NCBI GenBank assembly: GCA_963714095.1
Contig: OY970230.1
Coordinates: forward strand, 198,206-262,205
Direction of reading: 5' to 3'
Length of the DNA stretch: 64,000 nt
DNA from: Candidatus Gottesmanbacteria bacterium
Lineage (GTDB): Bacteria > Patescibacteriota > Microgenomatia > UBA10105 > UBA927
The notes under the pieces are model-generated. The model ran no database searches, was not told the DNA's origin, and saw nothing but the letters and a program-made list of their open reading frames with translations. Made by a program: the position numbers and the translations under genes. Shown here piece after piece: positions 5,635 through 47,720 of this stretch. Every line of letters starts with the position of its first letter. The first letter of the stretch is position 1.

Positions 5635-5646
5635 ACGTTGAACCCC

Positions 5647-12236: not shown

Positions 12237-12239
12237 ACA

Positions 12240-15233
12240 TTATTTTTCGACTTTCATAAGCTGTTTCAACTGATAGTTTTCGAAAATAAATCTCTCCGCT
12301 GCAAACCCTACTTGTACTGGCGTGCTATATGCGGCTTCAGGCGTTGAAACGTTTGTCGTCGTATACCCATATGCATTCAACCGGAAAATATGCCACAAAG
12401 GATCCGCTAACCCTGTCGGGAAAATCCACGCGCGCCCGTACCTGATTGGCGTATTGATAAATATGAAACTGGTATATTGCCGAAGCGGGAAAAATTGCTT
12501 ACTTAAAGCAAGAAGTGTATTCTGGGAAACGGAACTTGCTTTTTTCCAATCAGTACTCAAACGCCCGATTTCCGACACATTCCATACGATAAGTCCTGCG
12601 ATTGCGGCAACGACAACGAATTTCACGGCGGCCTGCCGTGAGCGTTTCCACCATACAGATATCCCCGTACCCAGTGCCACAATAAAAAATCCGCTCGCGG
12701 CAAACACGTACCGTTCACTCATGTTTCCCAACCCGATAAATGCCAAAAGTGCAACGAAGCCGCATAATGCCCAGAAAAACACTGCGCGGTACGCGGCAAC
12801 GCGGCGCCAAACTTTCCATACGCATGCGGCAACGCCACCGATAAGCAATAACCCAGTCCCCACGGCAATCATGCGATGAATCCGCAGATACTCCCGCAGT
12901 ATTCCCCAGGATTCAATGACGCGGGTTCCGAAAAAGGTTGAGACGACATAGCCGACGGTGTTTCCGATAACGTTAAACGGCAACGTCGAGAGTTTGTAGC
13001 CATAATCTCCTGATGGAGGCACAGCACCCGAAGCAGTCCTGACAATCCAATACAGCGGTATTGCTATCAAAGGTAAGAACGTTGTCCAGTGGCGTTTACC
13101 CAGTATTACCCACGCAACGAGACAGTAAATAAGAGGCGCGACGATCATCCCATCATATGAGAGCATAGCGGACACGAGTAAAAGGAGTGACGCACAATAT
13201 ACTACCCATTTACCCCATGTAGGGCGCCGTCCGTACATCACCAAAAGAACGATACTGCCGAACAAACTGGCTGCAGAAAGTAAACTGCTCTGCCCTGAAA
13301 TCCAAAAAACATTTTCGTTGTGTATGGCAAGTGAAGTAAAGAGCAAGGCAAAAACCAGCGCTACCCAACGTTTGACGTCCGTCAGAACCAGCAGAAGATA
13401 CACAAAATACGCGCTTACGGCCAAAAGCAGGTACGACAAGAAGTGATACCCTTCGGGCTTCAGCCAAAACACCGCATACAGGACAAAATACCAAAACTTC
13501 GGTATCGGACGATAAAAAAATCCCTGGGCATTCGTAAAGTACGAAAGCAAACCCGAGAACGGCGTACTGGCTGCCCACCGCAGCCAGGTAAAATCATCCG
13601 CGACGAAATAGTTAGAAATGGAAGAACCGAAAAGCACAATGGCTGCCAGAAATAAATACATGGCATATGCGATATCATGCGTTAATGCGCGCCACATCAG
13701 TCTCATATAATCCGTAAACCGAAATTCAACCGTCGTAAGGAGTGCAAGCGCGACTCCAAGGAGTAACCATAACGTAAAGGCCACCTTCGACGCTTCAAAC
13801 ACGTCAATAAGAATCCCGTTAAATATTAAACCCGTGAGACCTCCGAATACGCCGACAACAAACGCCTTCTGATATCCGACGAGCGTTTCTTTCCGCCTGA
13901 AAAATATAACATAGGCGGCAAGAAGTATCCCTAAAAACGCAACAGTTCCCAATATGCCGGTTTCACCCAGCATCCTGACATAATCGCCGTCGGATGCCAC
14001 TGATAGCGTCGAATAGCCGCTCCCCAACAGGATATTCCGTTTGAAAGCGGTCATTGCTAGAGGCCACTCCCCCTGCAGACGCGTCGTGATGGAAATGTCA
14101 TAAACGAGCGCCTTCTGGATGAGGAAGCTTCCGGAAACCGTAGCGATTTCTCCCGTTCCGCTTTCGAGACTCACGCTGGTGTAAGAAATCGTCTTTACCT
14201 GGCTCGAAGCCGAAGCAGGCGCCTGCGACGCAGGCAAACCGATATATTCACTTCCTGTCGGCAAATTTTCCACAGCCGGAGATGCAGACTGCTGAACAAC
14301 CGCAGTTGTCCCTTCGAGGGACGCAAGTGTCCCGACCGGTTTACCGGTAGACAAATCCACAATGACGTCATTATATCTGAATGTTTTATAAAACCGATCC
14401 GATGCACCATTAAAAAAATTCAGCAGGAAAAAACTGAAGAGTATAACCGGAATGATAAACCATTTCTTTTTATACCAAAAAAGCATCACGCTTATCGCGA
14501 CAAGATACACGAGAAACGACGTCCGTGATTGTGTGAGAAACAGCATGACGAGCGATCCGACGGACACCATGAAAAATATAATTTTCTGCCACAGTTTATT
14601 GGCCGCAAATACAAACGCGGTAAGAATCGGAACGGTGAAAACGACAAATGCAGCAAGATCATAATGTCCTCCAAAGGTTGAAGGGATGCGCGCCGTAGGC
14701 GGAAGACGAAGCGGTATTCCCTTTGCGAACTGCTCGTTCATCGTCAAAAATGCCGGCCAGCCGAAAAATTTTTCACCAAGTCCGTATACGATAATGCCTA
14801 CTGTTGTTCCCACAAGCGTCCAGATGACCGCCGTAACCAACGACTTCTTCCTGGCAACGACGTCAAATGCTATAAAAAACAGCATCATGTATTCTATCCG
14901 CCGGAGCCAATGCAGCAAAACAAGATGGGGGAAATACCCGACAAGCTTTGGACCGATAAAAATCATGGAAAAGACAGCCGAAATAAGGCCGACGCCCCAA
15001 AAAACAAGAATCGGCCATGTAAGCGGCGTTTTCGGAATATGACGCTGCTGTAGGCGCAGCAGAACATACACACCAACTGCAGCCGCAACAAAAAAATCTT
15101 CCAGGCGTATATAAACAAACGTCCGGATAACATTAATAAGCGGCAACTTCGGATAGAGCGGAATAAACGCCAAAAAAAACAATATCGTCAGTCCGCCGAT
15201 GTTACTGGTTAACCAATGCAAGGCCTTCTTCAT
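12240..15233 (-). CDS. fusion membrane protein: O-antigen ligase/polymerase (Wzy_C) domain plus second GT-C-like polytopic domain
   Basis: Residues ~1-515 carry Wzy_C-like features (FLTQSRTSFLVYLVAI ... LLGSGYSTL ... DYVRMLGETGILG) with a ~100-aa Ser/Ala/Thr-rich loop insertion. Residues ~520-997 form a second multi-TM block opening with YFVADDFTWLRWA. Confidence 0.65.
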   Translation of the reverse strand: MKKALHWLTSNIGGLTILFFLAFIPLYPKLPLINVIRTFVYIRLEDFFVAAAVGVYVLLRLQQRHIPKTPLTWPILVFWGVGLISAVFSMIFIGPKLVGYFPHLVLLHWLRRIEYMMLFFIAFDVVARKKSLVTAVIWTLVGTTVGIIVYGLGEKFFGWPAFLTMNEQFAKGIPLRLPPTARIPSTFGGHYDLAAFVVFTVPILTAFVFAANKLWQKIIFFMVSVGSLVMLFLTQSRTSFLVYLVAISVMLFWYKKKWFIIPVILFSFFLLNFFNGASDRFYKTFRYNDVIVDLSTGKPVGTLASLEGTTAVVQQSASPAVENLPTGSEYIGLPASQAPASASSQVKTISYTSVSLESGTGEIATVSGSFLIQKALVYDISITTRLQGEWPLAMTAFKRNILLGSGYSTLSVASDGDYVRMLGETGILGTVAFLGILLAAYVIFFRRKETLVGYQKAFVVGVFGGLTGLIFNGILIDVFEASKVAFTLWLLLGVALALLTTVEFRFTDYMRLMWRALTHDIAYAMYLFLAAIVLFGSSISNYFVADDFTWLRWAASTPFSGLLSYFTNAQGFFYRPIPKFWYFVLYAVFWLKPEGYHFLSYLLLAVSAYFVYLLLVLTDVKRWVALVFALLFTSLAIHNENVFWISGQSSLLSAASLFGSIVLLVMYGRRPTWGKWVVYCASLLLLVSAMLSYDGMIVAPLIYCLVAWVILGKRHWTTFLPLIAIPLYWIVRTASGAVPPSGDYGYKLSTLPFNVIGNTVGYVVSTFFGTRVIESWGILREYLRIHRMIAVGTGLLLIGGVAACVWKVWRRVAAYRAVFFWALCGFVALLAFIGLGNMSERYVFAASGFFIVALGTGISVWWKRSRQAAVKFVVVAAIAGLIVWNVSEIGRLSTDWKKASSVSQNTLLALSKQFFPLRQYTSFIFINTPIRYGRAWIFPTGLADPLWHIFRLNAYGYTTTNVSTPEAAYSTPVQVGFAAERFIFENYQLKQLMKVEK

Positions 15234-16071
15234 ATATTGTGACCAAATCCTGCTTTCCGAGGATTTTACCGATACTAATTGAAACGGTCGCCTTAACCGT
15301 CAACATAAATTTTAACACAGATACCTCCTGCGGTGTTTTGTGCTTCCGATAAAAATACAGAAGCCCGCGGAATATATTTGCCACTGGCGCCCGCTTATTG
15401 CCGCTGGAAGCGGCACCGGTATGAATAAAGCGCGCGTCAGGAGTAAAAAAGACGGAATATCCTTTTCGAGCCGCACGATAGAGAAATTCTATCTCATCCA
15501 TATACATAAATATCCCCTGATCGAATAACCCCACATCATAAAAAGAGTCCCTAGTGCCGAGTAAACATGCTCCTGACACCCAACCAACACGCCTCGTATG
15601 GTCCGGCGAATACCGGGTTATCGATATCTTATCTCCGCGGCAAAACAACATGAGAAATATATACCAAAGGGAAAACTCGGGCCCGCAGGACGGCTGAAGC
15701 GATCCATCCTCGTTGTAGAGTTTTCCTCCGACGAAAGATTTAGGATGTGCCAGAGCAAATTCATATAATTTTTCAAAAGCACCATTGAGCGCATCGATAT
15801 CGGAATTGAGCATAAGAACATAGGTCCCCTTCGCAATATGAAGACCCATGTTATTGGCGGTACCATAACCTACATTTTCCTTATTGAGTATTTTTATTAC
15901 CTGAGGAAATTGTGTATTCAACATCGCAACAGAACCGTCACGGGACGCATTATCGACAACAATGATTTCATATGTCAACTTGGAATGTTTAAGAGTCTCA
16001 ACGATTGACCGCAGACACCGCCCCGTCAAGTGTTTAGTGTTAAAACTGGGGATAATAATTGATAGATCCAT
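15202..16071 (-). CDS. glycosyltransferase family 2
   Basis: MDLSIIIPSFNTKH...EIIVVDNASRDGS...LMLNSDID. Same 289-aa length and subfamily as 8779..9648. Confidence 0.9.
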   Translation of the reverse strand: MDLSIIIPSFNTKHLTGRCLRSIVETLKHSKLTYEIIVVDNASRDGSVAMLNTQFPQVIKILNKENVGYGTANNMGLHIAKGTYVLMLNSDIDALNGAFEKLYEFALAHPKSFVGGKLYNEDGSLQPSCGPEFSLWYIFLMLFCRGDKISITRYSPDHTRRVGWVSGACLLGTRDSFYDVGLFDQGIFMYMDEIEFLYRAARKGYSVFFTPDARFIHTGAASSGNKRAPVANIFRGLLYFYRKHKTPQEVSVLKFMLTVKATVSISIGKILGKQDLVTIYEEGLALVNQ

Positions 16072-16074
16072 ACG

Positions 16075-16638
16075 TCACTGGAAGAGCCTCGAAAACTTCA
16101 GCGTATAGTGAAGATTTTTCGACCGGTCTCGGATATGGCTAGCCGGGACCCCCCCGACCACTTCGTAGTCTCCCACGTCTTTGGTGACGACTGCCCCGGA
16201 TGCTATGACTGCCCCGCGTCCTACATGGACACCGGGTAAAATCGTAACTCTCGTTCCTATGACTGCATAATCATCGATAACAACCGGCGCCGCGACTTCG
16301 ACAAAATCCGGGCTATCTATATCATGCTCCATGGTGTAAATGCGTACTTCACCGGCAATCGACACATTATTGCCTATTTTTAATGGGTGTCCATTCGATT
16401 TTAGATAGGTAACGAAATTTTTCATCCGGCCGTCTAAAAATGCATCATTACCTATCACGGTATTGTGCCCTATCGCGACACCCGCCGGCTGATTAAACTC
16501 CGCACGCCAGTGAATAGAAGAGTCCTTTCCGATTTTAATCCGGAAGAGTGTCCGGTAAAGAAATAAACGAATCGTATGACTCGGAATATAGCCGGTAAGC
16601 GTACAAAGATATACCCAAAAATCTATGAGTGCCCTCAT
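16075..16638 (-). CDS. hexapeptide-repeat (left-handed beta-helix) O-acetyltransferase
   Basis: Repeats IGHNTVIGNDAFL, IGNNVSIAGEVRI, IDDYAVIGTRVTILPGVHVGRGAVIASGAVV. I moved the start to the ATG at 16638, which forms an ATGA overlap with the stop of 16635..17768. The listed ORF extends to 16695. Confidence 0.85.
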   Translation of the reverse strand: MRALIDFWVYLCTLTGYIPSHTIRLFLYRTLFRIKIGKDSSIHWRAEFNQPAGVAIGHNTVIGNDAFLDGRMKNFVTYLKSNGHPLKIGNNVSIAGEVRIYTMEHDIDSPDFVEVAAPVVIDDYAVIGTRVTILPGVHVGRGAVIASGAVVTKDVGDYEVVGGVPASHIRDRSKNLHYTLKFSRLFQ

Positions 16639-17768
16639 ACTTTGCCTCCCACTTTTTCCAATACCTCCAGTGTCTGTTGTGCCGCTTTTTCCCATGTAAA
16701 TTTTTTCACCTGTGCAAGTCCCGCGTCCACACGCTGCCGCCCTTGTATCAGGTTTCTCTGCCGTACTGCCGTAAGAAGCCCGGCAGCGATACTTTCTGCA
16801 CTACCCGCGTCCACATAAATCCCTGCCCTGCCAGCTATCTCAGGAAGACTGGAAACGTTCGAAACGACTACTGGGCATTTATACGCCATCGCCTCCAGAA
16901 CCGGAAGCCCAAACCCTTCGTACAGGCTCGGGAGAGCAAAACAGAGCGCATGTTTGTAAAAAGACGGAAGTTCACCATCAGGCACAAAATCCAAAAATTT
17001 TACGCTCTGAATGACTCCGAATTTTTTCGGAGCGGCAAGGATATCCTCATACAGCCAACCCTTTTTCCCGATGATGACAAGCTGAAGATCGGAGAACTTC
17101 TGCTTATTGGTTCCGATAAACCGTGCAAACGCCTCGATGAGCTTCACATAATTTTTTCTTGGCTGAATCGTGCCTACAGATAGGATAAAATTCCTGCTCA
17201 TATCGTATTTTTTTGTCAACGTTTCAATTGGAACAGAGGAAGTCGTTTTTTTATCCATAGTGAAACCGGGATACATCACAAAAACCCTATCCCCGGATAC
17301 GTGATATTGCCTAATTATAGCATTTTTGCTGAACTCGCTTATCGTCAGTATCCTTGCCGCATGTGCGACTCCATACCCTGTCCATTGCTTCAGCTGATAC
17401 AGATCCTTCGGTTTAAACATTTCGGGATACAACAGGTACGACAAATCCATAATCGCCATCACCCTGGGAACGCGTACAAAACGGGGTATATAGTGCGTCG
17501 GAGAAAACATAACATCAAGTGCAGGCTCCTCTTTCCGAATCGCCAGAGGCAATCCCACCAACGTCCATAATTTCGACGGTCTGCATACGCGATACTGCCA
17601 GTACCTCGTTTCTTTCGGCATATCATTTTGCGCAGACCCGGGCAAAAACACAGTTACGTTGTGCCCAGCCATGAGCGGATAAAGATGCACAAGAATTTCG
17701 TACGCGTACCGGCCGATACCCACGCGGTTAACGACATTTGCTTCATACCCGTCGATTCCTATATTCAT
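16635..17768 (-). CDS. glycosyltransferase family 4 (GT-B), full length
   Basis: MNIGIDGYEANVVNRVGIGRYAYEIL opening. C-domain FILSVGTIQPRKN and EGFGLPVLEAMAYKCPVVVS. Confidence 0.9.
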   Translation of the reverse strand: MNIGIDGYEANVVNRVGIGRYAYEILVHLYPLMAGHNVTVFLPGSAQNDMPKETRYWQYRVCRPSKLWTLVGLPLAIRKEEPALDVMFSPTHYIPRFVRVPRVMAIMDLSYLLYPEMFKPKDLYQLKQWTGYGVAHAARILTISEFSKNAIIRQYHVSGDRVFVMYPGFTMDKKTTSSVPIETLTKKYDMSRNFILSVGTIQPRKNYVKLIEAFARFIGTNKQKFSDLQLVIIGKKGWLYEDILAAPKKFGVIQSVKFLDFVPDGELPSFYKHALCFALPSLYEGFGLPVLEAMAYKCPVVVSNVSSLPEIAGRAGIYVDAGSAESIAAGLLTAVRQRNLIQGRQRVDAGLAQVKKFTWEKAAQQTLEVLEKVGGKV

Positions 17769-18325
17769 AATGAAAACCCCGGATATATAACGTGGAGTTT
17801 GCTTTCAGGAATGTGCAACAGCTCCATAATGTCTTTTTTTGTCGATTCACTGTCACAAAAAATGGCTGCGCATTCTTTTTTCACCCACCTGAGCCTCCGT
17901 GCATGCGTAGCCACAATACCCATATCCATTTCCTTTAGAAAACGTATCGTCGAAAGATCATGAACGGTTGTCACACCTTTTGCATGGAATAGCGGCGGCT
18001 GCGTCCAATCGCTGCTCCAAAAAACATCCAACGGCCCGGTAAATGTTTCAACAGGCAGAACATGAAAACTGTTCCACATGATGTCCAAGAGTTTCGGCGG
18101 AAGAGGAATCCTCTTTAATTCTACATTTGGATTTATCTTCCTCATTTCCTGAAAAAACTCTTCAAATATATGTTTTTTCCGGAGTGATGCGCCGAATAAA
18201 ACATATGTATTTCCCTTATCAATTTTTAAAAGCGTTTTAACCATGCGCCGGACATAGGCTGCCACTCCGGTGCCCTCGTAGACTATCTGGCTGATATCTA
18301 TTCCGATACGCATATACCCTATCAT
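17765..18325 (-). CDS. glycosyltransferase family 4 N-terminal domain only (truncated paralogue of the downstream gene)
   Basis: MRIGIDISQIVYEGTGVAAYVRRMV opening. Ends ...LHVIYPGFSL-stop, aligning with ...VFVMYPGFTM in 16635..17768. 4-nt overlap with that gene. No C-domain ORF follows. Confidence 0.7.
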   Translation of the reverse strand: MIGYMRIGIDISQIVYEGTGVAAYVRRMVKTLLKIDKGNTYVLFGASLRKKHIFEEFFQEMRKINPNVELKRIPLPPKLLDIMWNSFHVLPVETFTGPLDVFWSSDWTQPPLFHAKGVTTVHDLSTIRFLKEMDMGIVATHARRLRWVKKECAAIFCDSESTKKDIMELLHIPESKLHVIYPGFSL

Positions 18326-18326: not shown

Positions 18327-19940
18327 TCATTTTTCAGGTAAATAATACAAAAACTCCTGTGCTTTTGCCCGTTGCTGTTGTGTTAACCCTGATACTAAAG
18401 ACTTTTTTATATAGAGACATGTAGGTTTTCCTTCCGAATACCACTGTGCATAGAAAGGTAAAAATTGGGACGGAAAACGCGGATGAACCGGTGCGTCCGG
18501 AGTGCAAAAATCATACAGGATATCCGGCGGATCATGGGTAAACATATCGATCATGGCGTTATAATATTTATCTTTAAATCGGATCGGGTAGTAAAACGAA
18601 TATGAATAAGAAGAACTCCTGCCTGATGCGACATACAAAAACTCATCCGCTCCGTTGGTAAAAAGCGTTTGCTGAGGCACAGTTACTGCTTTAATAACTT
18701 CACTTATCTGCAAATAATTCCCGTAATTGGTGATAAACTCCGTCTGCTCGTCAACGTGCTGGTAGATGAAAGATCGCGGAGAAAATAACACGTAGGCAAC
18801 TAAGCACCCTATGATAATAAAAAATATGTATCGTTTACGGACTACCCAAAGCATTTCATAAAAAAGATACAACGACGAAAACAGGAAAATACCATACCAG
18901 TTTATTTCGTGAAACGCTTCAAAATATTGCAAACCCGGAATTGCAGGCCGGAGATTTGCCAAACCCAAAACAATAAAAAGGAATCCCAATACCCACATGT
19001 TTTTCTTTGTTTTCAGCCACAGAAAAACAGAAAAACCAAAAACGACAGTCAAACATATCAATTGAATACGAAAATCATTCCACCTTCCGGCAATAAGAAT
19101 ATAGAGGGGGTAAAAAAATGACTTAACGACGCCGGTACCGAAAAAATGACCCGCTTGCAGCTCGCTGGGTAATCCTGTCTGTAAATTCAGGGTAATAACA
19201 TTATAAACAAAATCACGGACAGGAAACAATATGAATAATCCCGCGGTTAAAATAAAAAATATAGCGAGGGCGATTTTACCGACATTTTTGAAAAACACAG
19301 GGCGGATAATAATGCCAAAAAGAAATATCGCTACCAACACGTACGGTTCTCGCATAAACACAACAAACCATAGACACAGGGCTGTTAAAACGATCTCCCA
19401 ATGGAACACAGGTTTCTTGCGGAGCGTATGCAATCCCAAACCGGTTAGGTACACGAGGGGATATACGATAAAACCTTCAGCCAGAAACCTATCACCAAAA
19501 ACATAAAATTTTGAAAATTCATATAAGAGTGTATATGCAAATCCGGTTATTCCGAACCTCCAACAGATAAAAACGTCAAAAACAAATCCAAACACTAATA
19601 AAAACTGCCGGTGTTGCAATAACAATGCATATATATTAACCGGATGCCCATAGTGCTGAATAACCAAACTAAGATATGCCATAAGCGGCATGTGGTTAAA
19701 GTAAATTTGTGAATACAGTTGCTTGCCCTTCCCAATAAAATATCCGCCAACATAGTTAAAACAGTCATCGAAACAACCAAACGCATTAATTTTCGGAATA
19801 TAGATCTTATAAAGAAAATAATACACAGGGATAAGAAGAATAAACCAGATCGTCAGGCGTACTAACGGATGTGATAAAACGGCGTTCCATGCAAAAGCAT
19901 TATTCTTTTTTTGCATAAGGATCAGGGGAATAACCATCAC
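18327..19940 (-). CDS. polytopic membrane protein, possible GT-C-like glycosyltransferase or polymerase
   Basis: More than 10 hydrophobic segments. The first loop has an acidic cluster, FGCFDDCFNYVGGYF. Soluble C-terminal ~130 aa. An alternative start at the ATG at 19916 would shorten the overlap with galE. Confidence 0.5.
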   Translation of the reverse strand: MMVIPLILMQKKNNAFAWNAVLSHPLVRLTIWFILLIPVYYFLYKIYIPKINAFGCFDDCFNYVGGYFIGKGKQLYSQIYFNHMPLMAYLSLVIQHYGHPVNIYALLLQHRQFLLVFGFVFDVFICWRFGITGFAYTLLYEFSKFYVFGDRFLAEGFIVYPLVYLTGLGLHTLRKKPVFHWEIVLTALCLWFVVFMREPYVLVAIFLFGIIIRPVFFKNVGKIALAIFFILTAGLFILFPVRDFVYNVITLNLQTGLPSELQAGHFFGTGVVKSFFYPLYILIAGRWNDFRIQLICLTVVFGFSVFLWLKTKKNMWVLGFLFIVLGLANLRPAIPGLQYFEAFHEINWYGIFLFSSLYLFYEMLWVVRKRYIFFIIIGCLVAYVLFSPRSFIYQHVDEQTEFITNYGNYLQISEVIKAVTVPQQTLFTNGADEFLYVASGRSSSYSYSFYYPIRFKDKYYNAMIDMFTHDPPDILYDFCTPDAPVHPRFPSQFLPFYAQWYSEGKPTCLYIKKSLVSGLTQQQRAKAQEFLYYLPEK

Positions 19941-20910
19941 GATGATTTTTATGCCATTTCCAGGCAGATGAAACGATAGTTTCTATATCTGAGTATTTTG
20001 GCCGCCAGCCGAATTCTTTCTTAAAATGTGTGGAGTCTGCAACGAGACTGTGCGGATCACCCGCCCGCCGCGGTGCCTCCCGCACGGCAAAATCTACCCC
20101 GGTCACCTTTTTAACCTCCGCGACAACTTCCTTATTTGTCATCCCATCCCCTGTTGCGAGGTTATATACGTCGGTTTTATGACCATGAGTTAATGCGTCC
20201 AGCGCCAATAAATGCGCCTCCGCAAGGTCCTCAATATGAATGTAGTCCCGCAGACACGACCCGTCGCGCGTCGGATAATCAGTTCCATACAGCAAAAATT
20301 CTTTCTGCTTTCCCATAGCCACACGGATCGCAACCGGAATAATATGTGTTTCAGGGAGATGATCTTCGCCGTTATCACCGCCCAGCGCTGCACCGCATGC
20401 ATTAAAATACCGGAGACTGATACTTCTTATATGATGCTGATAATCCGTCACGCGTAATAGCTCCTCGAAACACCATTTCGACAGCCCGTACGGGCTCGTG
20501 GGATTTTTTGCATGACTCTCCGGTATCGGAATAATTGTCGGATTTCCGTAGACGGCGGCAGTGGAAGAAAAAATAATTGTATCAACCCCATGCTCCTGCA
20601 TCACAGCGAGGAGTGTCATGGGCGCAATAATATTATTTTTCATGTATTTAATAGGATCCCGGACGGATTCTTCCACCATGAGGTATCCGGCAAAATGGAT
20701 GACTGCTTCAATCGAATATTTTGAAAAAATCGGCTCGAGCGTTGCTTTATCTTTAATATTACCCACGATAAGAGGCACCGTGGCCGGTAACGCCTGCCTG
20801 TGGCCGTATTCGAGGGAATCCACGACGATCGGGTGGTAGCCCCGCGCAACAAGCATCCGCACCATATTGCTTCCGATATAGCCGGCGCCTCCGGTAACAA
20901 GCACGTTCAT
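19900..20910 (-). CDS. galE: UDP-glucose 4-epimerase family (GalE)
   Basis: MNVLVTGGAGYIGSNMV, SSTAAVYG and PYGLSKWCFEELL (YxxxK) give a canonical GalE layout. Length 336 aa. Confidence 0.88.
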   Translation of the reverse strand: MNVLVTGGAGYIGSNMVRMLVARGYHPIVVDSLEYGHRQALPATVPLIVGNIKDKATLEPIFSKYSIEAVIHFAGYLMVEESVRDPIKYMKNNIIAPMTLLAVMQEHGVDTIIFSSTAAVYGNPTIIPIPESHAKNPTSPYGLSKWCFEELLRVTDYQHHIRSISLRYFNACGAALGGDNGEDHLPETHIIPVAIRVAMGKQKEFLLYGTDYPTRDGSCLRDYIHIEDLAEAHLLALDALTHGHKTDVYNLATGDGMTNKEVVAEVKKVTGVDFAVREAPRRAGDPHSLVADSTHFKKEFGWRPKYSDIETIVSSAWKWHKNHRDGYSPDPYAKKE

Positions 20911-20914
20911 TCCT

Positions 20915-21136
20915 CTATTTTACTTTATTGGGCCGCAGGAGGGAAATCAGAAGGAAAGAGAGCGTGAACGCAGCACCATACCAAGTCAGACGCTCGGCGG
21001 TAAAAAAAGTCCACGTAGCAAATAACGGAATCGCCAAAACCCAGCTTGCGAGGCCGGCAAACAGAAATAACCGGGGCTTTCTAATTAAAAGTAATACGAC
21101 AAATACCAGAAAAAATCCTATATCCTGCGGCTTCAT
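20915..21136 (-). CDS. small hydrophobic membrane protein (73 aa, 2-3 TM)
   Basis: Almost entirely hydrophobic (FFLVFVVLLLI, LFLFAGLASWVLAIPLFATWTFF, AAFTLSFLLISLL). Tightly packed between the UXS-like gene and galE with a 4-nt overlap. Confidence 0.5.
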   Translation of the reverse strand: MKPQDIGFFLVFVVLLLIRKPRLFLFAGLASWVLAIPLFATWTFFTAERLTWYGAAFTLSFLLISLLRPNKVK

Positions 21137-22077
21137 TGTTTGTAATATGCAATCGTTTTATGTAACCCATCTTCGACGGTCACCTTTGGCGTCCATTGTA
21201 AACGGGTTTTTATCTTTGTTATATCCGGCTTACGCTGGGTCGGATCATCCTCCGGCAATGCTTCAAAAGTAATGGGGGACGCCGATCCTGTCAGCACCTT
21301 AATTTTTTGAGCAAGATCTTTAACCGTGTACTCTTCCGGATTTCCCAGATTAAATACTTCACCTTTGAGGTTGTCGGCGAGCATAACCGCCAGAATTCCG
21401 GATACGAGATCCGAAACGTAACAAAATGACCGGGTCTGTGAACCGCTCCCAAATACCGTCAACGGTTTTTCTTCAAGGGCCTGGTTAATAAAATTTGAAA
21501 CCACACGACCATCATCTTTGCGCATCCTCGGGCCGTAGGTGTTGAATATGCGGATAATACGGGCATCAAGGCCGTATTTCCGAACATAAACCATTGTGAT
21601 TGCCTCTGCAAACCGCTTGGATTCATCGTAACATGCGCGGACTCCGTTAGGATTCACGTTCCCCCAATACAATTCTGTCTGCGGATGCTCCTTTGGATCC
21701 CCGTATACTTCCGATGTGGATGCCTCTAAATATCGTGATGTATGATCCCGCGCAAACTGCAACATATGAATGGTCCCAACTGAGTTGACCAACGCAATTT
21801 CCTCGGAGAGTTTTTTAAAATCCATCGGCGAAGCCGGAGACGCAAGGTTAAAGACGTAATCAATGTGTCCTAGAATATCGGGAGCTGACTCGATAATATC
21901 GTGGCGCAAAAACGAGAAATTTGAGTTTTGTTTCGCCGATTCAATATTTTTTTCAGATCCTGTCAGAAGATTATCTATGCACAATACTTTGTGCCCGAGT
22001 CCCAGTAACGCATCACAAAGGTGCGATCCGATAAATCCTGCCCCGCCGCTAACTACGCTGGTTTTTTGATCTGTCAT
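21133..22077 (-). CDS. UDP-glucuronate decarboxylase (UDP-xylose synthase / ArnA C-domain-like SDR)
   Basis: VVSGGAGFIGSHLCDALL...IDNLLTGSEKNI...STSEVYGDP...YDESKRFAEA matches the UXS family pattern. I chose the start at the ATG at 22077 (MTDQKTSVV); the listed ORF extends to 22116. Confidence 0.82.
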   Translation of the reverse strand: MTDQKTSVVSGGAGFIGSHLCDALLGLGHKVLCIDNLLTGSEKNIESAKQNSNFSFLRHDIIESAPDILGHIDYVFNLASPASPMDFKKLSEEIALVNSVGTIHMLQFARDHTSRYLEASTSEVYGDPKEHPQTELYWGNVNPNGVRACYDESKRFAEAITMVYVRKYGLDARIIRIFNTYGPRMRKDDGRVVSNFINQALEEKPLTVFGSGSQTRSFCYVSDLVSGILAVMLADNLKGEVFNLGNPEEYTVKDLAQKIKVLTGSASPITFEALPEDDPTQRKPDITKIKTRLQWTPKVTVEDGLHKTIAYYKQ

Positions 22078-22081
22078 GCAT

Positions 22082-22792
22082 CTATTGTAGCATACGGATA
22101 CGGATGGCTCCTGCAAGCGACCGCAGGAGTTCTTTCACGTTTGCATTGGAAGCTCCATGTGTTCTGTCCCGGAAACTTATGGGGACTTCCGTTATTCGAA
22201 AACTGTTCTGCTTCAGTTTATATGCTATTTCCGACAGTACGATAAACCCGGTTTCATGAAGGTGCACGCGCACCAAAAATTCCGCTGCTTTTCGGGAGTA
22301 TAATCGGAAACCGTTGGTATAATCCGTTAAGTGCAACCCAAGCCATATGCTTAACAAGGCGTTAATTACTCTGCTTTGAATAAGTCGACGCCACGGCCAT
22401 TTTACAATATGGCTCTGTTTAAGATACCGCGAACCGATAACCAAATCTGCCCCGCGGCGTACGGCTAAAAACCGTCCGAACTCTGCCGGTGAATGCGCTA
22501 GATCTGCATCCATCTCAAAACAATATTGTATTTCCTTATGTTTGAGGGCTTCAGCTAATCCCCGAATGACGGCACTCCCTCTGCCCATTTTGTGCTCGCG
22601 GGAAATAAGAACCACGTTGGGAAAATCCCTTTGAAGCATTCCTGACAGTTGTATTACTTCGTTGGCAGGAGAGTCATCAACAACCACGATCAGAGCATCC
22701 GGGAGGTATTTTTCTATATCTTTTAATAAAATACTTAAATTTTTTTGTTCGTTATACGCCGGAATAATGACTGAAATACCTTGATTATTCAT
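22082..22792 (-). CDS. polyprenyl-phosphate glycosyltransferase, GT2 (DPM1/ArnC-like)
   Basis: ISVIIPAYNEQKNL...VVVDDSP...GRGSAVIRG...FEMDADLAHSP has the DPM1-type MDADLSH-like motif. Length 236 aa, no TM tail. Confidence 0.8.
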   Translation of the reverse strand: MNNQGISVIIPAYNEQKNLSILLKDIEKYLPDALIVVVDDSPANEVIQLSGMLQRDFPNVVLISREHKMGRGSAVIRGLAEALKHKEIQYCFEMDADLAHSPAEFGRFLAVRRGADLVIGSRYLKQSHIVKWPWRRLIQSRVINALLSIWLGLHLTDYTNGFRLYSRKAAEFLVRVHLHETGFIVLSEIAYKLKQNSFRITEVPISFRDRTHGASNANVKELLRSLAGAIRIRMLQ

Positions 22793-22813: not shown

Positions 22814-25096
22814 CTAATTTTTTTCAAATATTGCTATTTGTGCGTTATCGAATATCTTTGTCAGGTGTAACGACGTAATTTCATAATCGGAAATATCAGA
22901 GCCCAGATATCTGGGGATAACAATAAGTTTACTGTCGTAATCTGATATCTTAAGAACGTTATCTTCCGGTCTCATAACCATTTCCCACTTTTTGCCGGTT
23001 ATCGTTTGTCCTATACGGTAGTCAGTATATACAATCGGTTTTACTGCTTTATATATCGGCAGTATCGAATTATCTACCTGCTCTACATACAACACGCTCT
23101 TTTTTTGATTTTTAATAATTTGCAGCGCATGTATTTCATACGTTGTAAGGGCATACTTGCTCCTTGAATAAACAACAGTTACTGCAAGAGACAACAGAAT
23201 GAGGGGAGGGATAATACTGCATAACACTAACATATTCCTCGTTTTGTACTTCCGGAATATAACGATAGCAATCGTAACCAGCACAATTGCAAGAACAGCG
23301 AGGGATGCAAATACAGCCCCGTATGTTGTTTTATCGAGAGGAAAATACGGAACATGCATATACAGAAATACCATCAGCGCATAATAGGCCCAATACAGAT
23401 ATTTCTTTACCTTTCCTGAAGGTCTAACGATGAATACATAATGAAGGACAAACAGGATAAAAAACGGCAGAACTTTACTGACGTACACGGTGGTTAAAAC
23501 GGGAAAAAGATGTAAAGAAAAAAGAATGATAAGTGGTATTGTCTCTTTTTTGTCAAAAAGAAAGGTTACATTTTGTACTAAAAACGGAAACGCAATAAGG
23601 AGCGGAAGGAGTAATAATAAAAACTCATTCACTGATGTCCGGATATTTTTTCTGATGCAACAGATGACGGCGAAATAGAGAATGTAGAGGACACAGAGAA
23701 TCTGAAATGGGCTCATTCCCGGTTTTTCCTGATCAAACGAGAAACTTTTTCCGCCGCGACTCTCAGGGTACACCTGTACTCCCGTCGGAGTAAAATATGC
23801 AACTTTATCGTTTCCTGCATACAGCTCTACATCGTTTCCTTTTTCCTTCGTCGTAAGCTGGTCGCTCGTTTTTCTGATGAAAATACCCTGATCGGGAAAG
23901 GTCATTGAATCAATAATTTCCTGCTCATTTATTCTTAAGGTTGGCTGACTGTTCGGAAGGATATCGAAATCCTCCGGAATCTTATCTGCGTAATTCCTTA
24001 GATCAACGAAAGAAACAACGCCGTTTATTTTCTGCACCGTCGCCCGGTAGTTTTCCGACATATACCAGAATGACTGATTGTTTGAGTCGTAATCCGTTGA
24101 GAGAAAATGGGTTCTGCCTGCAAATACTTTCTTCTGCGCCAAAAACCGCTGGGCGTACTCCTGTGCCGGCACTATATCTACTTTGCCGGATGCCTGTATT
24201 TCCCTGGCTTTGGTGAGCATCGTTTTATACGATTGCTGAAATGTTTCGAGTGTTTCTCCGTTCTCCAGTCCCATCACGAAATTGCCGAATGGTTTCTGCA
24301 AAAAAATCGAGGCAAGGTAGTCGACGTACTCCGGTGTATATCCTCTCGCCGAATAATCCTGCAGACTATACAAAGGATCTGCATACCCTTTAAGGGGATC
24401 CCGTATCGCCCACTGCAGAATTACCACCTTTGTGCTTTCGGCAAACGATGCTGCCGGTATTCCCTCATTCCCTTTTGAAGGAAGATACGGAATATCCCAC
24501 GGAGTCCCCCAAATGGAATACGTATCCAAATTAAATTGGTCTGCCGCCCTCAGAGCTGCGGTGATCCCGTATTTTTCCTGCATATAAGAAAGCGAGTCTC
24601 CGCCGATCCACCAGGCGCCGACTGTCTTGGGATAATATCCGAAAATTTCCTTAAATTTAAAAAAGGCCGCGTCTATCAACTTTCGTCTTTCGCTCTGATC
24701 ATAGGAGCTTAATAATAATCCGTCGGAAAAGTACCATTCCCCCTGTCCCCGAAACTGAACGTTGGATTTCTGGGCATAATTCCTGTCAATCTCAAACAGC
24801 AATCCGAATTCCTGGCCCTTCATTTCCTGTTTGGCAAATTCGGTCATGTCTTTATTCTCCAAAGCTCCATATTGAAACAGCCACGTCGCATAAACACCGA
24901 CCTCACTCGTAACCTGCCACTGAGCTTTCAGGCTGGCAAGCAAATCATCAGACGCGTGTCCGAGTCCGTTCCCCCGGACAAGATTGATGACGGTAATTGC
25001 GGGACGTGAGGCACTATCCTGAGCTTCGGAATGACACGGGAAGCAGAAAAAGAAAACAATGATTAAAAAAGTAAACAGAACAATTCTTTTTATCAC
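22814..25096 (-). CDS. large membrane protein: signal/anchor, ~440-aa ectodomain, ~8 TM block, C-terminal domain; function unknown
   Basis: N-terminus IVLFTFLIIVFFFCFPCHSEA. The ectodomain has YPKTVGAWWIGGDSLSYMQEKYGI (faintly polysaccharide-deacetylase/NodB-like, unverified). Hydrophobic cluster at about residues 465-640. Confidence 0.5.
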   Translation of the reverse strand: MIKRIVLFTFLIIVFFFCFPCHSEAQDSASRPAITVINLVRGNGLGHASDDLLASLKAQWQVTSEVGVYATWLFQYGALENKDMTEFAKQEMKGQEFGLLFEIDRNYAQKSNVQFRGQGEWYFSDGLLLSSYDQSERRKLIDAAFFKFKEIFGYYPKTVGAWWIGGDSLSYMQEKYGITAALRAADQFNLDTYSIWGTPWDIPYLPSKGNEGIPAASFAESTKVVILQWAIRDPLKGYADPLYSLQDYSARGYTPEYVDYLASIFLQKPFGNFVMGLENGETLETFQQSYKTMLTKAREIQASGKVDIVPAQEYAQRFLAQKKVFAGRTHFLSTDYDSNNQSFWYMSENYRATVQKINGVVSFVDLRNYADKIPEDFDILPNSQPTLRINEQEIIDSMTFPDQGIFIRKTSDQLTTKEKGNDVELYAGNDKVAYFTPTGVQVYPESRGGKSFSFDQEKPGMSPFQILCVLYILYFAVICCIRKNIRTSVNEFLLLLLPLLIAFPFLVQNVTFLFDKKETIPLIILFSLHLFPVLTTVYVSKVLPFFILFVLHYVFIVRPSGKVKKYLYWAYYALMVFLYMHVPYFPLDKTTYGAVFASLAVLAIVLVTIAIVIFRKYKTRNMLVLCSIIPPLILLSLAVTVVYSRSKYALTTYEIHALQIIKNQKKSVLYVEQVDNSILPIYKAVKPIVYTDYRIGQTITGKKWEMVMRPEDNVLKISDYDSKLIVIPRYLGSDISDYEITSLHLTKIFDNAQIAIFEKN

Positions 25097-25120: not shown

Positions 25121-26980
25121 TTATTTCGCATCTATACGAAGTATCAGGTATTTCGTGTCTTCATAGACTGTTTCGTATGTTGCGGTAAGCAATTTTTCGT
25201 CAACGGCATACGGAAAATCGTTTTTCTTCCATCTCGGAATAAGGATATATGAGATATTACTTGCTTTGGCAGCCGAGATATCACCCTGGTACACCCTAGA
25301 AACAACAGGCGACCGGTCTACCCAGCCGACATTCCCGTAAAAACCGAAATAATTGGTCCTCCCTGCTAAAACTACCGGGTCTATGATGTCCGAATATGAC
25401 ACAAAAATCGCGTCTCGTTGTGTGTTTTTTTTAATCCAGGAAATAACCGCGGCTGTATCCTTATCTACCAGCGGATACGCGAACTCATTCTTTACGACCA
25501 TAAGGTCGATAGCACCTGATACCGTAAGGGTAAATAAAAGAGCGAGTGCAAGCAGTCTAAATCCGACTCTTTTCCGCCGCAAAAGCCAAACAATTCCGCA
25601 TGCGGCACTGATATTGACACCGATGATGAGAACTGACAGAAATTTCTGGTCAAATCCATGCTTCCCGTACGCCGCATACAGGCATAGAGCAGCAAAAAAC
25701 AGAAAGAACGGAGCGATGACACCTCTTCGTTGTTTAGGAATTACGAAAAAACCCGCAACTGCAACGAACGGCAATATGCCGAGATTTTCCCACAAATACT
25801 GAAAAATGTTCCATTGCGGTAACCGGCCCGTTCCCTGTAATGATAACCCCAGTGACCATACGCTTTTCCATACGGAAACAAACGGCAAAACTGACATCAC
25901 AACCGTTCCTAGTGCGCACACGGAAAACGTAACCGACTCACGCCATCGTCTCCTCAAAAGCATAAGAAGAACAATGATTGCTCCGACAAGTGCACTGACA
26001 GGTATGTTCCAAAAAAACATACCGCCGGTTAATACACCCAATACGGCGCCGTTGAAATTCGTTAACCGTTTATCATCGGACAGCTTGAGGAGACACATAA
26101 TCAGGAAAAGCCCGAGCGCAATACTAAAAGCCAGATGCCGCTGATTCACATAATTATTGAGCGTCATAAAAACGGAAATAACGGATCCGTCATACGGTCC
26201 GGCAAACGGGTACGCGGGAAGTCTCCAGGTGGTATGAAAAAATGCAAAGTTAAAACCTTTTTGGGGTATGAAATACCAAAACGTCAGCGTACTGTGCGTA
26301 ATTGTCAACAATACCGCAACCCATCCGGCGAGTTTCGTTTGTTTCAGAAATACTTGCGGCAAAAAATAAACAATTATGAGAAGTGACGCAAATGAAACTA
26401 TGCTGGGAATATTCATAGCCCATACGATCGGAACACCGAAATATTCCCAGAGAGCGACGAAAAAATAGAAAAGGAAATGATAAAAAAATGGCAGTCCAGA
26501 CTGAAACGGAGACATAAACGGAATATTATTTCCCCATGAAAATGACCGCACGATCCCGAGTGAATGCCCGAAATCAAACACGTTATTACTTCCGACAAAT
26601 AATGTTCCGCCTGTTCCTGCACGAAACGTTTTCATCATCAGCCACGAACTGAAAAGAACTGAAAAAAGGACGATAAGTACGTCACCAAATGTCAGGACAG
26701 ACGTTGAATTCGATTTTTTTATTTTCACAAAACGGCTTAAGATGAATACTACTGCGATAAAGAGAACCGTGCTCCAAAGAATCGATTCTCCGGTTTGCCT
26801 CAGTAAACTTGCCAATATATAGGTTGTCGGTACTCCGATACCGATGCCGACTATCATGGAACCGACAAACGCAAGCAATACAGGCATTCCGGAAAACCAT
26901 TTTTTTACGACGATCGAACCCAAAAACGTTAATGAAATAATGTAGAGAGCAAGAATGAGCAAATGGATACCCTGTTGCAT
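25121..26980 (-). CDS. polytopic membrane protein, GT-C-like (unassigned family)
   Basis: About 14 hydrophobic segments followed by a ~130-aa soluble C-terminal domain (ArnT/PMT-like overall layout). No family motif confidently recognised. Confidence 0.5.
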   Translation of the reverse strand: MQQGIHLLILALYIISLTFLGSIVVKKWFSGMPVLLAFVGSMIVGIGIGVPTTYILASLLRQTGESILWSTVLFIAVVFILSRFVKIKKSNSTSVLTFGDVLIVLFSVLFSSWLMMKTFRAGTGGTLFVGSNNVFDFGHSLGIVRSFSWGNNIPFMSPFQSGLPFFYHFLFYFFVALWEYFGVPIVWAMNIPSIVSFASLLIIVYFLPQVFLKQTKLAGWVAVLLTITHSTLTFWYFIPQKGFNFAFFHTTWRLPAYPFAGPYDGSVISVFMTLNNYVNQRHLAFSIALGLFLIMCLLKLSDDKRLTNFNGAVLGVLTGGMFFWNIPVSALVGAIIVLLMLLRRRWRESVTFSVCALGTVVMSVLPFVSVWKSVWSLGLSLQGTGRLPQWNIFQYLWENLGILPFVAVAGFFVIPKQRRGVIAPFFLFFAALCLYAAYGKHGFDQKFLSVLIIGVNISAACGIVWLLRRKRVGFRLLALALLFTLTVSGAIDLMVVKNEFAYPLVDKDTAAVISWIKKNTQRDAIFVSYSDIIDPVVLAGRTNYFGFYGNVGWVDRSPVVSRVYQGDISAAKASNISYILIPRWKKNDFPYAVDEKLLTATYETVYEDTKYLILRIDAK

Positions 26981-33266: not shown

Positions 33267-33381
33267 ATTGTTTCGTTGGTTCGTATGCAATACTATGTAC
33301 CTATTATATCCTGACTTTACCGAAAATCTTGATAATAAATAATAACACAGTTGCAAAAATTTAACTAAACCGCAAAGCCTT
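33267..33381. promoter_or_regulatory. probable divergent promoter region
   Basis: First strand switch in the locus. It lies between the likely start of the minus-strand GT-C gene and the plus-strand acyltransferase gene. No consensus boxes confidently identified. Confidence 0.25.
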
Positions 33382-47680: not shown

Positions 47681-47720
47681 ATAACTCCTTGCTTATACCT
47701 ATGATTCGCACAAAATACCC

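Follow-up and report, generated by a model that had tools for sequence, protein, structure and literature searches.

Four consecutive genes at positions 19900 to 22792 of the window, the whole stretch of 64,000 nucleotides that was analyzed, lie where two portions of a cell-surface glycan island meet. On balance, a polyprenyl-phosphate glycosyltransferase (GT2) and the GT-C proteins near it appear to make up an extracytoplasmic arm, lying beside a block headed by a UDP-xylose synthase (UXS), a 73-residue membrane protein, and a GalE-type epimerase. The four genes probably contribute to decoration of the cell surface on the outer side of the membrane.

Gene arrangement

An earlier reading of the DNA letters by themselves (the sequence-only reading) had described four genes flanked by large membrane proteins. 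All four open reading frames are present on the minus strand with the classes and coordinates it gave, and large polytopic proteins lie on both sides of the module, of 537 aa downstream and of 760, 619, 580, 986, and 576 aa upstream.

31626..33356, minus strand: M576, possible GT-C (weak PMT_2 match)
28669..31629, minus strand: M986, GT-C-like membrane domain plus large external domain (homology to M580)
26984..28672, minus strand: M580, AftD-like GT-C glycosyltransferase by predicted fold, 562 aa from the annotated start
25121..26980, minus strand: M619, probable GT-C with 13 hydrophobic segments (weak DPY19-like signal)
22814..25096, minus strand: M760, signal peptide, ~430-aa external domain, then ~6 hydrophobic segments
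22082..22792, minus strand: GT2 of the DPM1/Ppm1/ArnC class, "subfamily B," 236 aa (Pfam, NCBIfam, and PDB matches)
21133..22077, minus strand: UDP-glucuronate decarboxylase/UDP-xylose synthase (UXS), 314 aa from ATG (human UXS1 match)
20915..21136, minus strand: sTM73, conserved three-helix membrane protein of 73 aa (homologues and AF2 model)
19900..20910, minus strand: GalE-family UDP-hexose 4-epimerase, 336 aa (TIGR01179)
18327..19940, minus strand: M537, polytopic, ~8 hydrophobic segments
5647-6729, minus strand: ManC-like nucleotidyltransferase (Pfam; island context)
4996-5634, minus strand: phosphoglycosyltransferase, Bac_transf (Pfam; island context)

Read from the sequence, the GT2 stop lies 4 nt from the UXS start, the UXS stop and the sTM73 start overlap in ATGA, and the sTM73 stop lies 4 nt from the GalE start; the GalE stop is in turn overlapped by the start of M537. 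The island extends from ~5.0 kb to past the window end, and adjacency is weak evidence where the genes of a large island mostly concern glycans. The host is an uncultured ultra-small CPR bacterium, Gottesmanbacteria-like.

GT2 and the flanking membrane proteins

GT2 matches Pfam Glycos_transf_2 (7.7e-21), and its best partial matches in NCBIfam are AglJ, PpgS, and ArnC. Its closest solved relative is the dolichyl-phosphate mannose synthase of Pyrococcus furiosus (PfDPMS; 5mlz, 7.9e-24), followed by ArnC (3.6e-11). In PfDPMS, residues D89, D91, H94, R117, R131, S135, and R202 bind the metal and donor or the Dol-P phosphate (PMC5526996). All seven are kept in GT2 and in nearly all of 86 relatives. 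GT2 groups with the polyprenyl-phosphate transferases and not with GT2s that use soluble acceptors, which bears out its description as DPM1/ArnC-like; at the level of sequence, its membership in the polyprenyl-phosphate class, where it would form the donor arm, is well supported. No hydrophobic segment was found in GT2, which is thus transmembrane-less. Its relatives very often adjoin polytopic membrane proteins, and one is fused to a PMT-type GT-C (Pfam PMT, 5.3e-12). GT2 can be regarded as an accessory gene placed where the module meets the GT-C genes.

The closest solved group (PfDPMS, human DPM1 with DPM2/3, and mycobacterial Ppm1/Ppm2) shares with GT2 the DAD motif as well as the residues for the acceptor phosphate, and in DPM1 and Ppm1 the catalytic subunit likewise has no transmembrane segment. 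In contrast with this group, GT2 reads DADLAH rather than DADLQH, has Arg in place of the guanine-stacking L69 and Ile in place of K178, and belongs to a subfamily that usually adjoins amino- or deoxy-sugar genes. This subfamily B, which carries R at position 69 and I/V at position 178 in PfDPMS numbering, is distinct from the canonical L69 subfamily, which takes in Bacteroidota-type Ppm-like proteins. Its neighbors are enriched for DegT, SDR, and C-methyltransferase genes, with an SDR or DegT gene directly adjacent in 27 of 65 loci, versus 2 of 18 canonical L69 loci.

The presence of adjacent GT-C-like proteins, as claimed earlier, holds best for M580, which is predicted to be a GT-C with the arabinofuranosyltransferase AftD as its nearest fold. 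M986, M619, and M576 are tied to the GT-Cs only through profile or weak family matches. M986 aligns with the M580 family in hhalign at 97% probability (E 1.3e-10) and has a weak DUF5667 match; M619 aligns with that family at 88% probability, and among its 841 relatives Pfam Dpy19 was matched by 4 of 40 members (best, 1.2e-5). The PMT_2 match of M576 (2.2e-5, 25.2 bits) falls slightly under the cut-off of 26.1. M537, which occurs only in the window and in loci L082/L083, has no Pfam, PDB, or profile match, and in L082 M760 forms a single fusion protein with the homologue of M619. Typing of M537 and M760 assigned neither to a family, which counts against the two-part reading.

In the favored two-part reading, the first part would be a Gtr/Arn-type arm for extracytoplasmic glycosylation. 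GT2 would load one sugar from a nucleotide sugar onto polyprenyl phosphate at the cytoplasmic face, the lipid-linked sugar would be flipped across the membrane, and M580, M986, and probably M619 would transfer it onto a polymer or protein at the surface. No recognizable flippase of the GtrA, ArnE/F, or MATE kind was found near the module.

The conserved block headed by UXS, sTM73, and GalE

UXS aligns with human UXS1 (4gll) at 1.3e-99, with 158 of 311 residues identical (51%; phmmer). Matches to dTDP-glucose dehydratases and UDP-apiose/xylose synthases reach only ~1e-24 to 1e-27, and scores for ArnA and bifunctional 4-keto-pentose synthase models fall far under their cut-offs. The SDR thus groups with UXS and with neither dTDP-glucose dehydratase nor ArnA; judged by sequence, the product of 21133-22077 is a true UDP-xylose synthase. 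The GalE-family assignment also stands, with 398.8 bits for TIGR01179 against a cut-off of 262.3. Its best PDB matches (8wxk and 2c20) were both deposited as UDP-glucose 4-epimerase, the protein is of the canonical Gram-positive type, and it is kept in L088, a locus without UXS. A UDP-Xyl 4-epimerase role seems unnecessary to invoke.

These genes continue into a conserved downstream block (10791..18325, minus strand; Pfam):

17765-18325, minus strand: GT4 N-domain
16635-17768, minus strand: GT4
16075-16695, minus strand: hexapeptide acyltransferase
15202-16071, minus strand: GT2 of the conserved block
12240-15233, minus strand: protein of 997 aa, weak Wzy_C match below threshold
10791-12236, minus strand: PMT_2-type GT-C

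Among nine related loci, sTM73, GalE, and the block from GT4 to PMT are present in all nine, with the same gene order of the block after GalE, whereas UXS is present in eight and a GT2 orthologue in five. UXS, sTM73, and GalE thus head a conserved block of soluble glycosyltransferases. The five loci with an orthologue are of Gottesmanbacteria type and place GT2 at most three genes from UXS, in three different arrangements. At the equivalent position, L087 and L090 carry a different small GT2 followed by a hexapeptide-type acetyltransferase, a DegT protein (best model ArnB, 389 bits, under the cut-off of 631), and UXS; L091 has UXS, sTM73, and GalE without any small GT2 nearby. The trio is kept both beside this GT2 and in loci that lack it, so UXS serves some other client, probably the block's Leloir glycosyltransferases. 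In this second part, UXS would make UDP-xylose and GalE would make UDP-galactose (or UDP-GalNAc), mainly for soluble Leloir transferases.

The small protein with two to three transmembrane segments noted earlier is real: the AF2 model has three helices (pLDDT 93), and at least 393 homologues exist, most also of 73 aa, with 58 to 81% identity in alignment A4. Residues P37, L38, F39, W42, F44, F45, T46, E48, R49, T51, and W52 are invariant, and conservation is highest from the end of helix 2 through a short loop to the start of helix 3. In Pfam and NCBIfam, sTM73 matched no family. Its proposed kinship with small flippase subunits did not hold, as it resembled neither ArnE/F nor GtrA and has three helices rather than four. 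We regard sTM73 as a membrane-sited conserved partner of the block, a candidate translocation subunit or GT-C accessory.

Human-type DPM1 requires small membrane subunits. sTM73 could play a part like that of DPM2/DPM3 or Ppm2, recruiting or stabilizing the transmembrane-less enzymes or a GT-C without being a flippase, and this is possible, if somewhat unlikely. The transmembrane-less GT2, the near invariance of the motif PLFxxWxFFTxERxTW, and the overlap of the gene with UXS (window, L082, L087, and L090) or, at its end, with the GT2 start (L089 and L092) agree with such a role. However, sequence similarity to DPM2 or DPM3 is absent, the protein is kept in L091, and the positive-inside rule predicts that the motif faces outward, leaving ~4 to 6 residues exposed to the cytoplasm by sequence reading.

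Donor sugar and known systems

The idea that a neutral pentose is loaded onto polyprenyl phosphate is partly supported: the donor arm is well supported, and a pentose as its sugar is plausible, though less likely than not. Among single candidates, xylose or L-arabinose supplied through the neighboring UXS tentatively ranks first; galactose or GalNAc through GalE is unlikely, as, equally, is mannose or glucose, and some other sugar is less likely still. Some orthologues of GT2 with 50 to 60% identity lack UXS in the available flanks (10 kb each side in most). Those of L002, L005, L006, L008, and L084/85 have no UXS, sTM73 gene, or GalE nearby and are identical to GT2 at every donor and acceptor position examined, so the sugar of GT2 may not depend on UXS.

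GT2 might instead be an ordinary synthase of polyprenyl-phosphate mannose (or glucose) that serves the GT-Cs of the island, with UXS and GalE feeding only cytoplasmic Leloir transferases and their adjacency incidental. We consider this rather unlikely. The best solved relative is GDP-mannose dependent, the ManC-like gene lies inside the island, and an MptA/B-family GT-C lies immediately outside the window, all of which also count against the two-part reading. Each set of genes occurs without the other, and homologues are named dolichol-phosphate mannosyltransferase or polyprenol monophosphomannose synthase in their sources, although these names are automatic annotations. Against this stand the position of GT2 outside the L69 subfamily and the DegT, SDR, and C-methyltransferase neighbors of subfamily B, which point to specialized sugars.

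One linear pathway, in which UXS makes UDP-Xyl, GalE makes UDP-L-Ara, GT2 loads the neutral pentose, sTM73 flips it, and the GT-Cs transfer it, would suit the tight spacing of all four genes, their recurrence in three different orders, the classes of GT2, UXS, and M580, the tailoring enzymes beside subfamily-B GT2s, and a relative's cassette with amino and acetyl steps, but it is improbable, as all four assignments must hold together while GalE passes the canonical model and is kept without UXS, sTM73 is related to neither ArnE/F nor GtrA and is kept in loci without GT2, UXS occurs without GT2 and so has its main client elsewhere, and ugd is absent from the window. As reported earlier, UDP-glucose dehydrogenase is missing there: no Ugd signature was found in any frame, and no corresponding Pfam match among the window ORFs of at least 150 aa that were scanned.

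The label of an Arn-like module is apt in part. As in the Arn pathway (ArnA, ArnB, ArnC, ArnD, ArnE/F, and ArnT), which supplies L-Ara4N for lipid A, a UDP-GlcA decarboxylase-type SDR, an ArnC-class GT2, and GT-Cs are clustered, and L087 and L090 hold a fuller Arn-like cassette, with DegT and an N-acyltransferase; the retention of the trio with or without GT2 weakens the earlier interpretation. The SDR is a reducing UXS without a formyltransferase domain, in contrast to the oxidative decarboxylase ArnA; GT2 lacks the two transmembrane helices of ArnC and is closer to DPMS; and the best-typed GT-C is AftD-like, not ArnT (GT83). Aminotransferase, deformylase, and ArnE/F are missing from the module. 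The claimed lack of an amino step applies to the four genes only, as the window elsewhere carries three DegT aminotransferases (47721-49031, 50922-52034, and 55617-56807); several acyltransferases also lie within it. Lipid A production is not known for this organism, a further difference from Arn.

The three-component Gtr systems of O-antigen glucosylation (GtrB, GtrA, and Gtr*) likewise pair a polyprenyl-phosphate GT2 with a GT-C, in a cassette that is variable and accessory to its glycan locus. Here, a GtrA-family protein is absent, GT2 is transmembrane-less, and several GT-Cs are present instead of one.

Three-component pentofuranose systems and mycobacterial DPA/AftD also use polyprenyl-phosphate pentose donors for GT-Cs outside the membrane, as the candidate pentose would here, and AftD is the nearest fold of M580. 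Their pentofuranose donors derive from PRPP (methylthioadenosine for MTX) by phosphoribosyltransferase-type enzymes, with MATE or SMR flipping (Kelly et al. 2024, PMC11127046), whereas the candidate route here would combine a UDP-pentopyranose with GT2. No such route to a lipid donor was described in the literature searched, and a pentopyranose lipid donor made by a GT2 would, if true, be new.

Composition of the module

The module consists of four genes running together on the minus strand with exactly the boundaries first proposed for them (19900 to 22792), and neighboring genes are spaced by 4 nt or overlap. Promoter and terminator scans gave results indistinguishable from shuffled sequence.

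Genes of the module, in window coordinates
22082-22792, minus strand: GT2, 236 aa, with Pfam Glycos_transf_2 over residues 7 to 171
21133-22077, minus strand: UXS, 314 aa, with no extra domain
20915-21136, minus strand: 73-aa protein, a real gene
19900-20910, minus strand: GalE, scoring 398.8 bits with TIGR01179 against a curated cut-off of 262.3

The short-chain dehydrogenase/reductase (SDR) encoded at 21133 to 22077 is a genuine UDP-xylose synthase. Its match to human UXS1 (336.6 bits, 1.3e-99, 158/311 residues identical, 51%) lies well above those to other extended SDRs, the next-best structure being 6zl6 (153 bits), whose sole annotation is that of an epimerase domain protein, with UDP-apiose/xylose synthase and dTDP-glucose dehydratase at 97 bits each. 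The motifs STSEVYG, YDExKR, and QTR, which from the human UXS1 structures we take to be those of the active site, are all kept in the alignment to UXS1. On this protein the ArnA model reaches 86.3 bits (cut-off 777) and that for the bifunctional 4-keto-pentose/xylose synthase 95 bits (cut-off 294), so that among UXS, ArnA, UDP-apiose/xylose synthase, and dTDP-glucose dehydratase the scores select UXS. ArnA combines an N-terminal formyltransferase domain with a decarboxylase that releases UDP-4-keto-pentose, whereas the window SDR has no formyltransferase domain.

The sequence-only reading described the module as Arn-like but lacking the amino and formyl steps. This stands for the region from 18.3 to 33.4 kb, where ArnB, the formyltransferase, and ArnD, which accompany ArnC and ArnT in the Arn system, are all missing. 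It does not extend to the whole window, where DegT aminotransferase genes are found at 47.7, 50.9, and 55.6 kb. None of the Pfam scans brought up a formyltransferase or a deformylase. In line with the earlier statement, ugd was not found in the window either: there was neither a Ugd signature nor a Ugd Pfam hit, and motif and Pfam scans of the window and the 4.8 kb past its end retrieved none.

The best PDB matches of GalE are 8wxk and 2c20, and its sequence cannot tell UDP-Xyl 4-epimerase activity apart from GalE promiscuity. The 73-aa protein belongs to a family of at least 393 homologues, mostly of 73 aa, which share 58 to 81% identity in alignment A4 of this family and a nearly invariant motif, PLFxxWxFFTxERxTW. 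Its AF2 model has three helices (residues 3 to 18, 21 to 40, and 44 to 67), and by the positive-inside rule the N terminus and the conserved loop are predicted to face outward. Pfam and NCBIfam place it in no family, the sole match up to an E value of 10 being Lycopene_cyc at 0.013. The suggestion that it is a small membrane flippase like ArnE/F or GtrA was not borne out, as it matches neither EamA/SMR nor GtrA and has three helices, not four; a role in translocation is neither supported nor excluded by these data. A full four-step model, with GalE as pentose epimerase and the 73-aa protein as flippase, is improbable.

Two otherwise differently arranged loci from relatives carry a pair of small open reading frames (ORFs) between UXS and the 73-aa gene (L003:11234-11903 and L092:8384-9055), and one of the pair in L092 encodes a DUF5674 protein. 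This junction may be marked by small genes that are perhaps mobile or of a toxin-antitoxin-like kind. Three AbiEii genes lie just upstream of the replacement cassette of L090, a locus described below.

The GT2 and its subfamily

The nearest solved relatives of the window GT2 are the dolichyl-phosphate mannose synthase of Pyrococcus furiosus (PfDPMS, 5mlz; 7.9e-24) and ArnC (3.6e-11), and its best partial matches in NCBIfam are AglJ, PpgS, and ArnC. Residues were compared in an alignment of the window GT2, 86 relatives from related loci, PfDPMS, and ArnC. In PfDPMS, residues D89, D91, H94, R117, R131, S135, and R202 make the metal/diphosphate, sugar, and Dol-P phosphate contacts, with R117, R131, and S135 binding the acceptor phosphate and Arg202 located in the A-loop (PMC5526996). 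Their equivalents are all conserved in the window GT2 and in nearly all of the 86 relatives. In its GT-A catalytic domain, the DXD motif D95-A-D97, for metal and diphosphate, aligns with D89-A-D91 of PfDPMS, although Ala takes the place of the metal-binding Gln of DADLQ. R122, R136, S140, and R210 align with R117, R131, S135, and R202, and alignment A1 shows no variation at these four positions. Enzymes of this class associate with the membrane by C-terminal transmembrane helices or through a membrane partner; no hydrophobic segment is present in the 236 aa of the window protein. In four genomes a GT2 of this family forms one protein with a PMT-type GT-C, and the family usually adjoins large polytopic proteins. 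The conserved PfDPMS residues, these fusions, and the polytopic neighbors together make the window GT2 a solid prediction as a polyprenyl-phosphate glycosyltransferase, in line with its first description as a DPM1/ArnC-like member of that class. Its predicted activity, as for the class, is to load one sugar unit from a nucleotide-sugar donor onto polyprenyl phosphate.

The fused proteins (L009:9974-12229, L011, L012, and L021) are 738 to 760 aa long, of which about 500 aa form the C-terminal membrane domain; in L009 this domain matches Pfam PMT at 5.3e-12. A protein of the L009 type would unite donor synthase and transferase in one polypeptide.

The GT2 family divides in two, with subfamily A having Leu at position 69 (PfDPMS numbering), the guanine-stacking position, and subfamily B, to which the window GT2 belongs, having R69/I178. 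An SDR or DegT gene is immediately adjacent in 27 of 65 subfamily B loci, compared with 2 of 18 for subfamily A, and examples in subfamily B include Gmd-DegT-SDR-GT2 operons and C-methyltransferase-GT2 pairs. Because of this difference in adjacency, subfamily B appears to carry specialized sugars made by enzymes of the same operon, which is the best argument for the original idea that a pentose from the neighboring UXS is loaded onto the lipid. Members from Pelagibacter and Peribacteria, with Gmd-DegT-SDR-GT2 operons, also fall in subfamily B.

The residues of the GT2 do not name its donor. The base-contacting Asp is conserved both in PfDPMS, a GDP-sugar enzyme, and in ArnC, a UDP-sugar enzyme, and the changes L69R and K178I mark the subfamily but identify neither nucleotide nor sugar. 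At every position examined, GT2 orthologues that have UXS nearby carry the same residue as those that do not. Outside the clade, proximity of UXS and GT2 was seen only in L070 (adjacent) and L058 (1 kb off), too sparse to count as a recurrent signal, and both of these GT2s belong to the other subfamily.

Related loci and flanking membrane proteins

The comparison set comprises nine distinct loci, all with the 73-aa gene. In all nine, GalE is followed by the series GT4-GT4-hexapeptide acyltransferase-GT2-protein of about 1,000 aa-PMT-like GT-C, and UXS lies upstream of the 73-aa gene in eight. Orthologues of the window GT2 occur in five of the nine, in three arrangements: GT2-UXS-73aa-GalE, GT2-M580-M619-UXS...73aa-GalE, and UXS-73aa-GT2-GalE, where M580 and M619 are polytopic membrane proteins named by their length. 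Three loci (L087, L088, and L090) have a replacement cassette consisting of a different small GT2, a hexapeptide acetyltransferase, and a DegT protein, and one (L091) has no small GT2 nearby. The cassette lies upstream of UXS in L090, directly, and in L087, with one further SDR gene between, whereas L088 has the cassette and GalE but no UXS. Levybacteria-type loci contain GT2 orthologues of 50 to 60% identity whose flanking sequence, in most cases 10 kb to either side, lacks UXS. From this pattern of presence and absence, and from the UXS-less GT2 orthologues, UXS-73aa-GalE belongs first to a conserved Leloir block, and the window GT2 is an exchangeable cassette where this block meets the GT-C genes. 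The best model for the L087 DegT protein is ArnB (389 bits against a cut-off of 631), and the L087/L090 cassette is, as far as gene content can predict, a fuller Arn-like set with an acetyl step in place of the formyl step.

The cassette spans L087:3492-8004 and L090:5529-9004, and its small GT2 is ArnC/PgfS/AglJ-like. In L084:1-9746, a GT2 orthologue (60% identity) lies downstream of a quite different sugar pathway (nucleotidyltransferase, PEPcase_2-family protein, TPP enzyme, transaldolase-family protein, DHQ-synthase-like protein, and HpcH/HpaI aldolase), the product of which may be a higher-carbon or phosphonate-bearing sugar. Homologues of the GT2, the 73-aa protein, and M580 bear names that include Gottesmanbacteria, Levybacteria, and Microgenomates, and the window belongs to a CPR/Patescibacteria genome. 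Several metagenome-assembled genome (MAG) records titled "uncultured Gammaproteobacteria" (L003, L004, L005, L007 to L010, and L012) contain loci with genes closest to those of Microgenomates or Gottesmanbacteria, and these labels look wrong.

Among the membrane proteins flanking the module, with M537 downstream and the others upstream, M580 has the GT-C membrane fold by structure prediction, and M986 has the same membrane domain. The M619 family aligns with the M580-type domain at 88% probability and gives weak Dpy19 matches. At the N terminus of the M580 family, G7-D8 and E15 are nearly invariant and are candidate acidic residues for the first extracytoplasmic loop. Pfam and NCBIfam returned nothing usable for the flanking proteins; PDB sequence searches with M537 and M760, a profile search with the M619 family, and hhalign comparison of M537 with the M580 and M619 families gave no match. 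Concrete targets for annotation, both well conserved, are the family of the 73-aa protein and the AftD-like GT-C family of M580 and its relatives, which has no Pfam entry.

In L082:6041-9991, homologues of M619 and M760 are fused in one protein of 1,316 aa, which links M760 functionally to the GT-C-like M619. The external domain of M760 is possibly a hydrolase or deacylase. Small membrane proteins of 111 to 128 aa, which resemble GtrA or ArnE/F in size and in having four hydrophobic segments, are encoded between M986 and M580 homologues in L089 (4773-5108), L092 (5100-5468), and L091 (4070-4456) and between two unassigned large proteins in L084 (17671-18015). They were set aside as GtrA candidates, since Pfam does not match them and the window encodes no homologue.

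Lipid-linked sugars and the glycan island

The module follows the same logic as Arn, Gtr, and the DPMS/Ppm-GT-C pairs, and there is good support for reading it as a donor arm that supplies GT-C enzymes with polyprenyl-phosphate-linked sugar, a reading that is probably correct. Among the candidates for the sugar on the lipid, a neutral pentose ranks first but is less likely than not. The polyprenyl-phosphate pentose donors described in the literature consulted are furanoses, with UndP-Ribf, UndP-Xylf, and DPA made from PRPP and decaprenyl-P-MTX from methylthioadenosine (PMC11127046). Full-text literature searches retrieved no xylopyranosyl or arabinopyranosyl lipid made by a GT2, and within the literature searched a GT2 route from UDP-pentose to a pentopyranose lipid is not described in bacteria. 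If the window GT2 truly uses UDP-xylose, such a pentopyranose would be a new class of lipid-linked donor beside Arn, Gtr, and DPA, and the cassette variation among relatives would offer a model, open to testing, of how CPR bacteria diversify their surfaces. A broader and more doubtful reading is that Gottesmanbacteria make a polyprenyl-phosphate pentopyranose (Xylp or L-Arap) through a GT2 devoid of transmembrane segments acting on UDP-pentose; that strains swap cassettes, carrying either a neutral pentose with the window GT2 or an N-acetyl-amino sugar with the different GT2, acetyltransferase, and DegT protein; that AftD-like GT-Cs install the glycan; and that the 73-aa protein is a new minimal translocation or accessory subunit. 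Were this so, the surface glycan would be diversified between strains.

CPR bacteria are tiny, uncultured, and attached to hosts, and to our knowledge their envelopes are chemically uncharacterized; a literature search on CPR envelope glycosylation returned nothing relevant. Most of the 64 kb of the window is given to glycan synthesis, in an island that begins at about 5.0 kb and continues past 64 kb. GT4 and GT2 genes are numerous in it, and it also encodes acyltransferases of the hexapeptide and GNAT types, three aminotransferases of the DegT family, a transketolase in split form, methyltransferases, and a Wzx-like protein (57602-58858), the sole flippase-like match in Pfam scans of ORFs of at least 150 aa. 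The same scans brought up none of the domains of the PRPP-based, GT136-type three-component pentofuranose system (polyprenyl phosphoribose synthase, MATE flippase, and GT136 GT-C). A PMT_2 match above the cut-off is found at 10791-12236, and other polytopic proteins give weak PMT_2, PTPS_related/YfhO, and sub-threshold Wzy_C matches. Evidence for GT-C is good for at least three window proteins (M580, M986, and the PMT_2 protein), with several more weak, and up to three small GT2s have DPMS/ArnC-like best matches. These GT-C proteins and small GT2s suggest that a large part of the surface is assembled or decorated on the outer side of the membrane, with lipid-linked monosaccharides as building blocks.

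Two further small GT2s without transmembrane segments (56824-57615 and 60353-61039) have DPMS or ArnC as best PDB matches, with the acceptor-phosphate residues less well conserved, and the first adjoins a DegT gene (55617-56807) and the Wzx-like gene. The stretch 46976-54441 probably specifies a pathway to an unusual sugar, with genes for a nucleotidyltransferase, a 4,6-dehydratase-like SDR, GNAT, two DegT proteins, a methyltransferase, and, between the two DegT genes, the split transketolase (49028-50796). A GT4 N-terminal domain encoded on its own (17765-18325) precedes a full GT4 gene (16635-17768), a pair kept in all related loci, and a second GT4 is apparently split into N-domain and C-domain ORFs (8261-8782 with 7786-8271). 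The lower end of the island (4996-6729) is marked by a small phosphoglycosyltransferase of the Bac_transf family and a nucleotidyltransferase resembling ManC, and below 4.9 kb lie DUF4012, RecO, a class II tRNA synthetase, and a histidine phosphatase. Just past position 64000, the island continues with another GT2 and with a GT-C of the MptA/B family (L093:3648-4790), a family that in Corynebacterineae uses polyprenyl-phosphate mannose.
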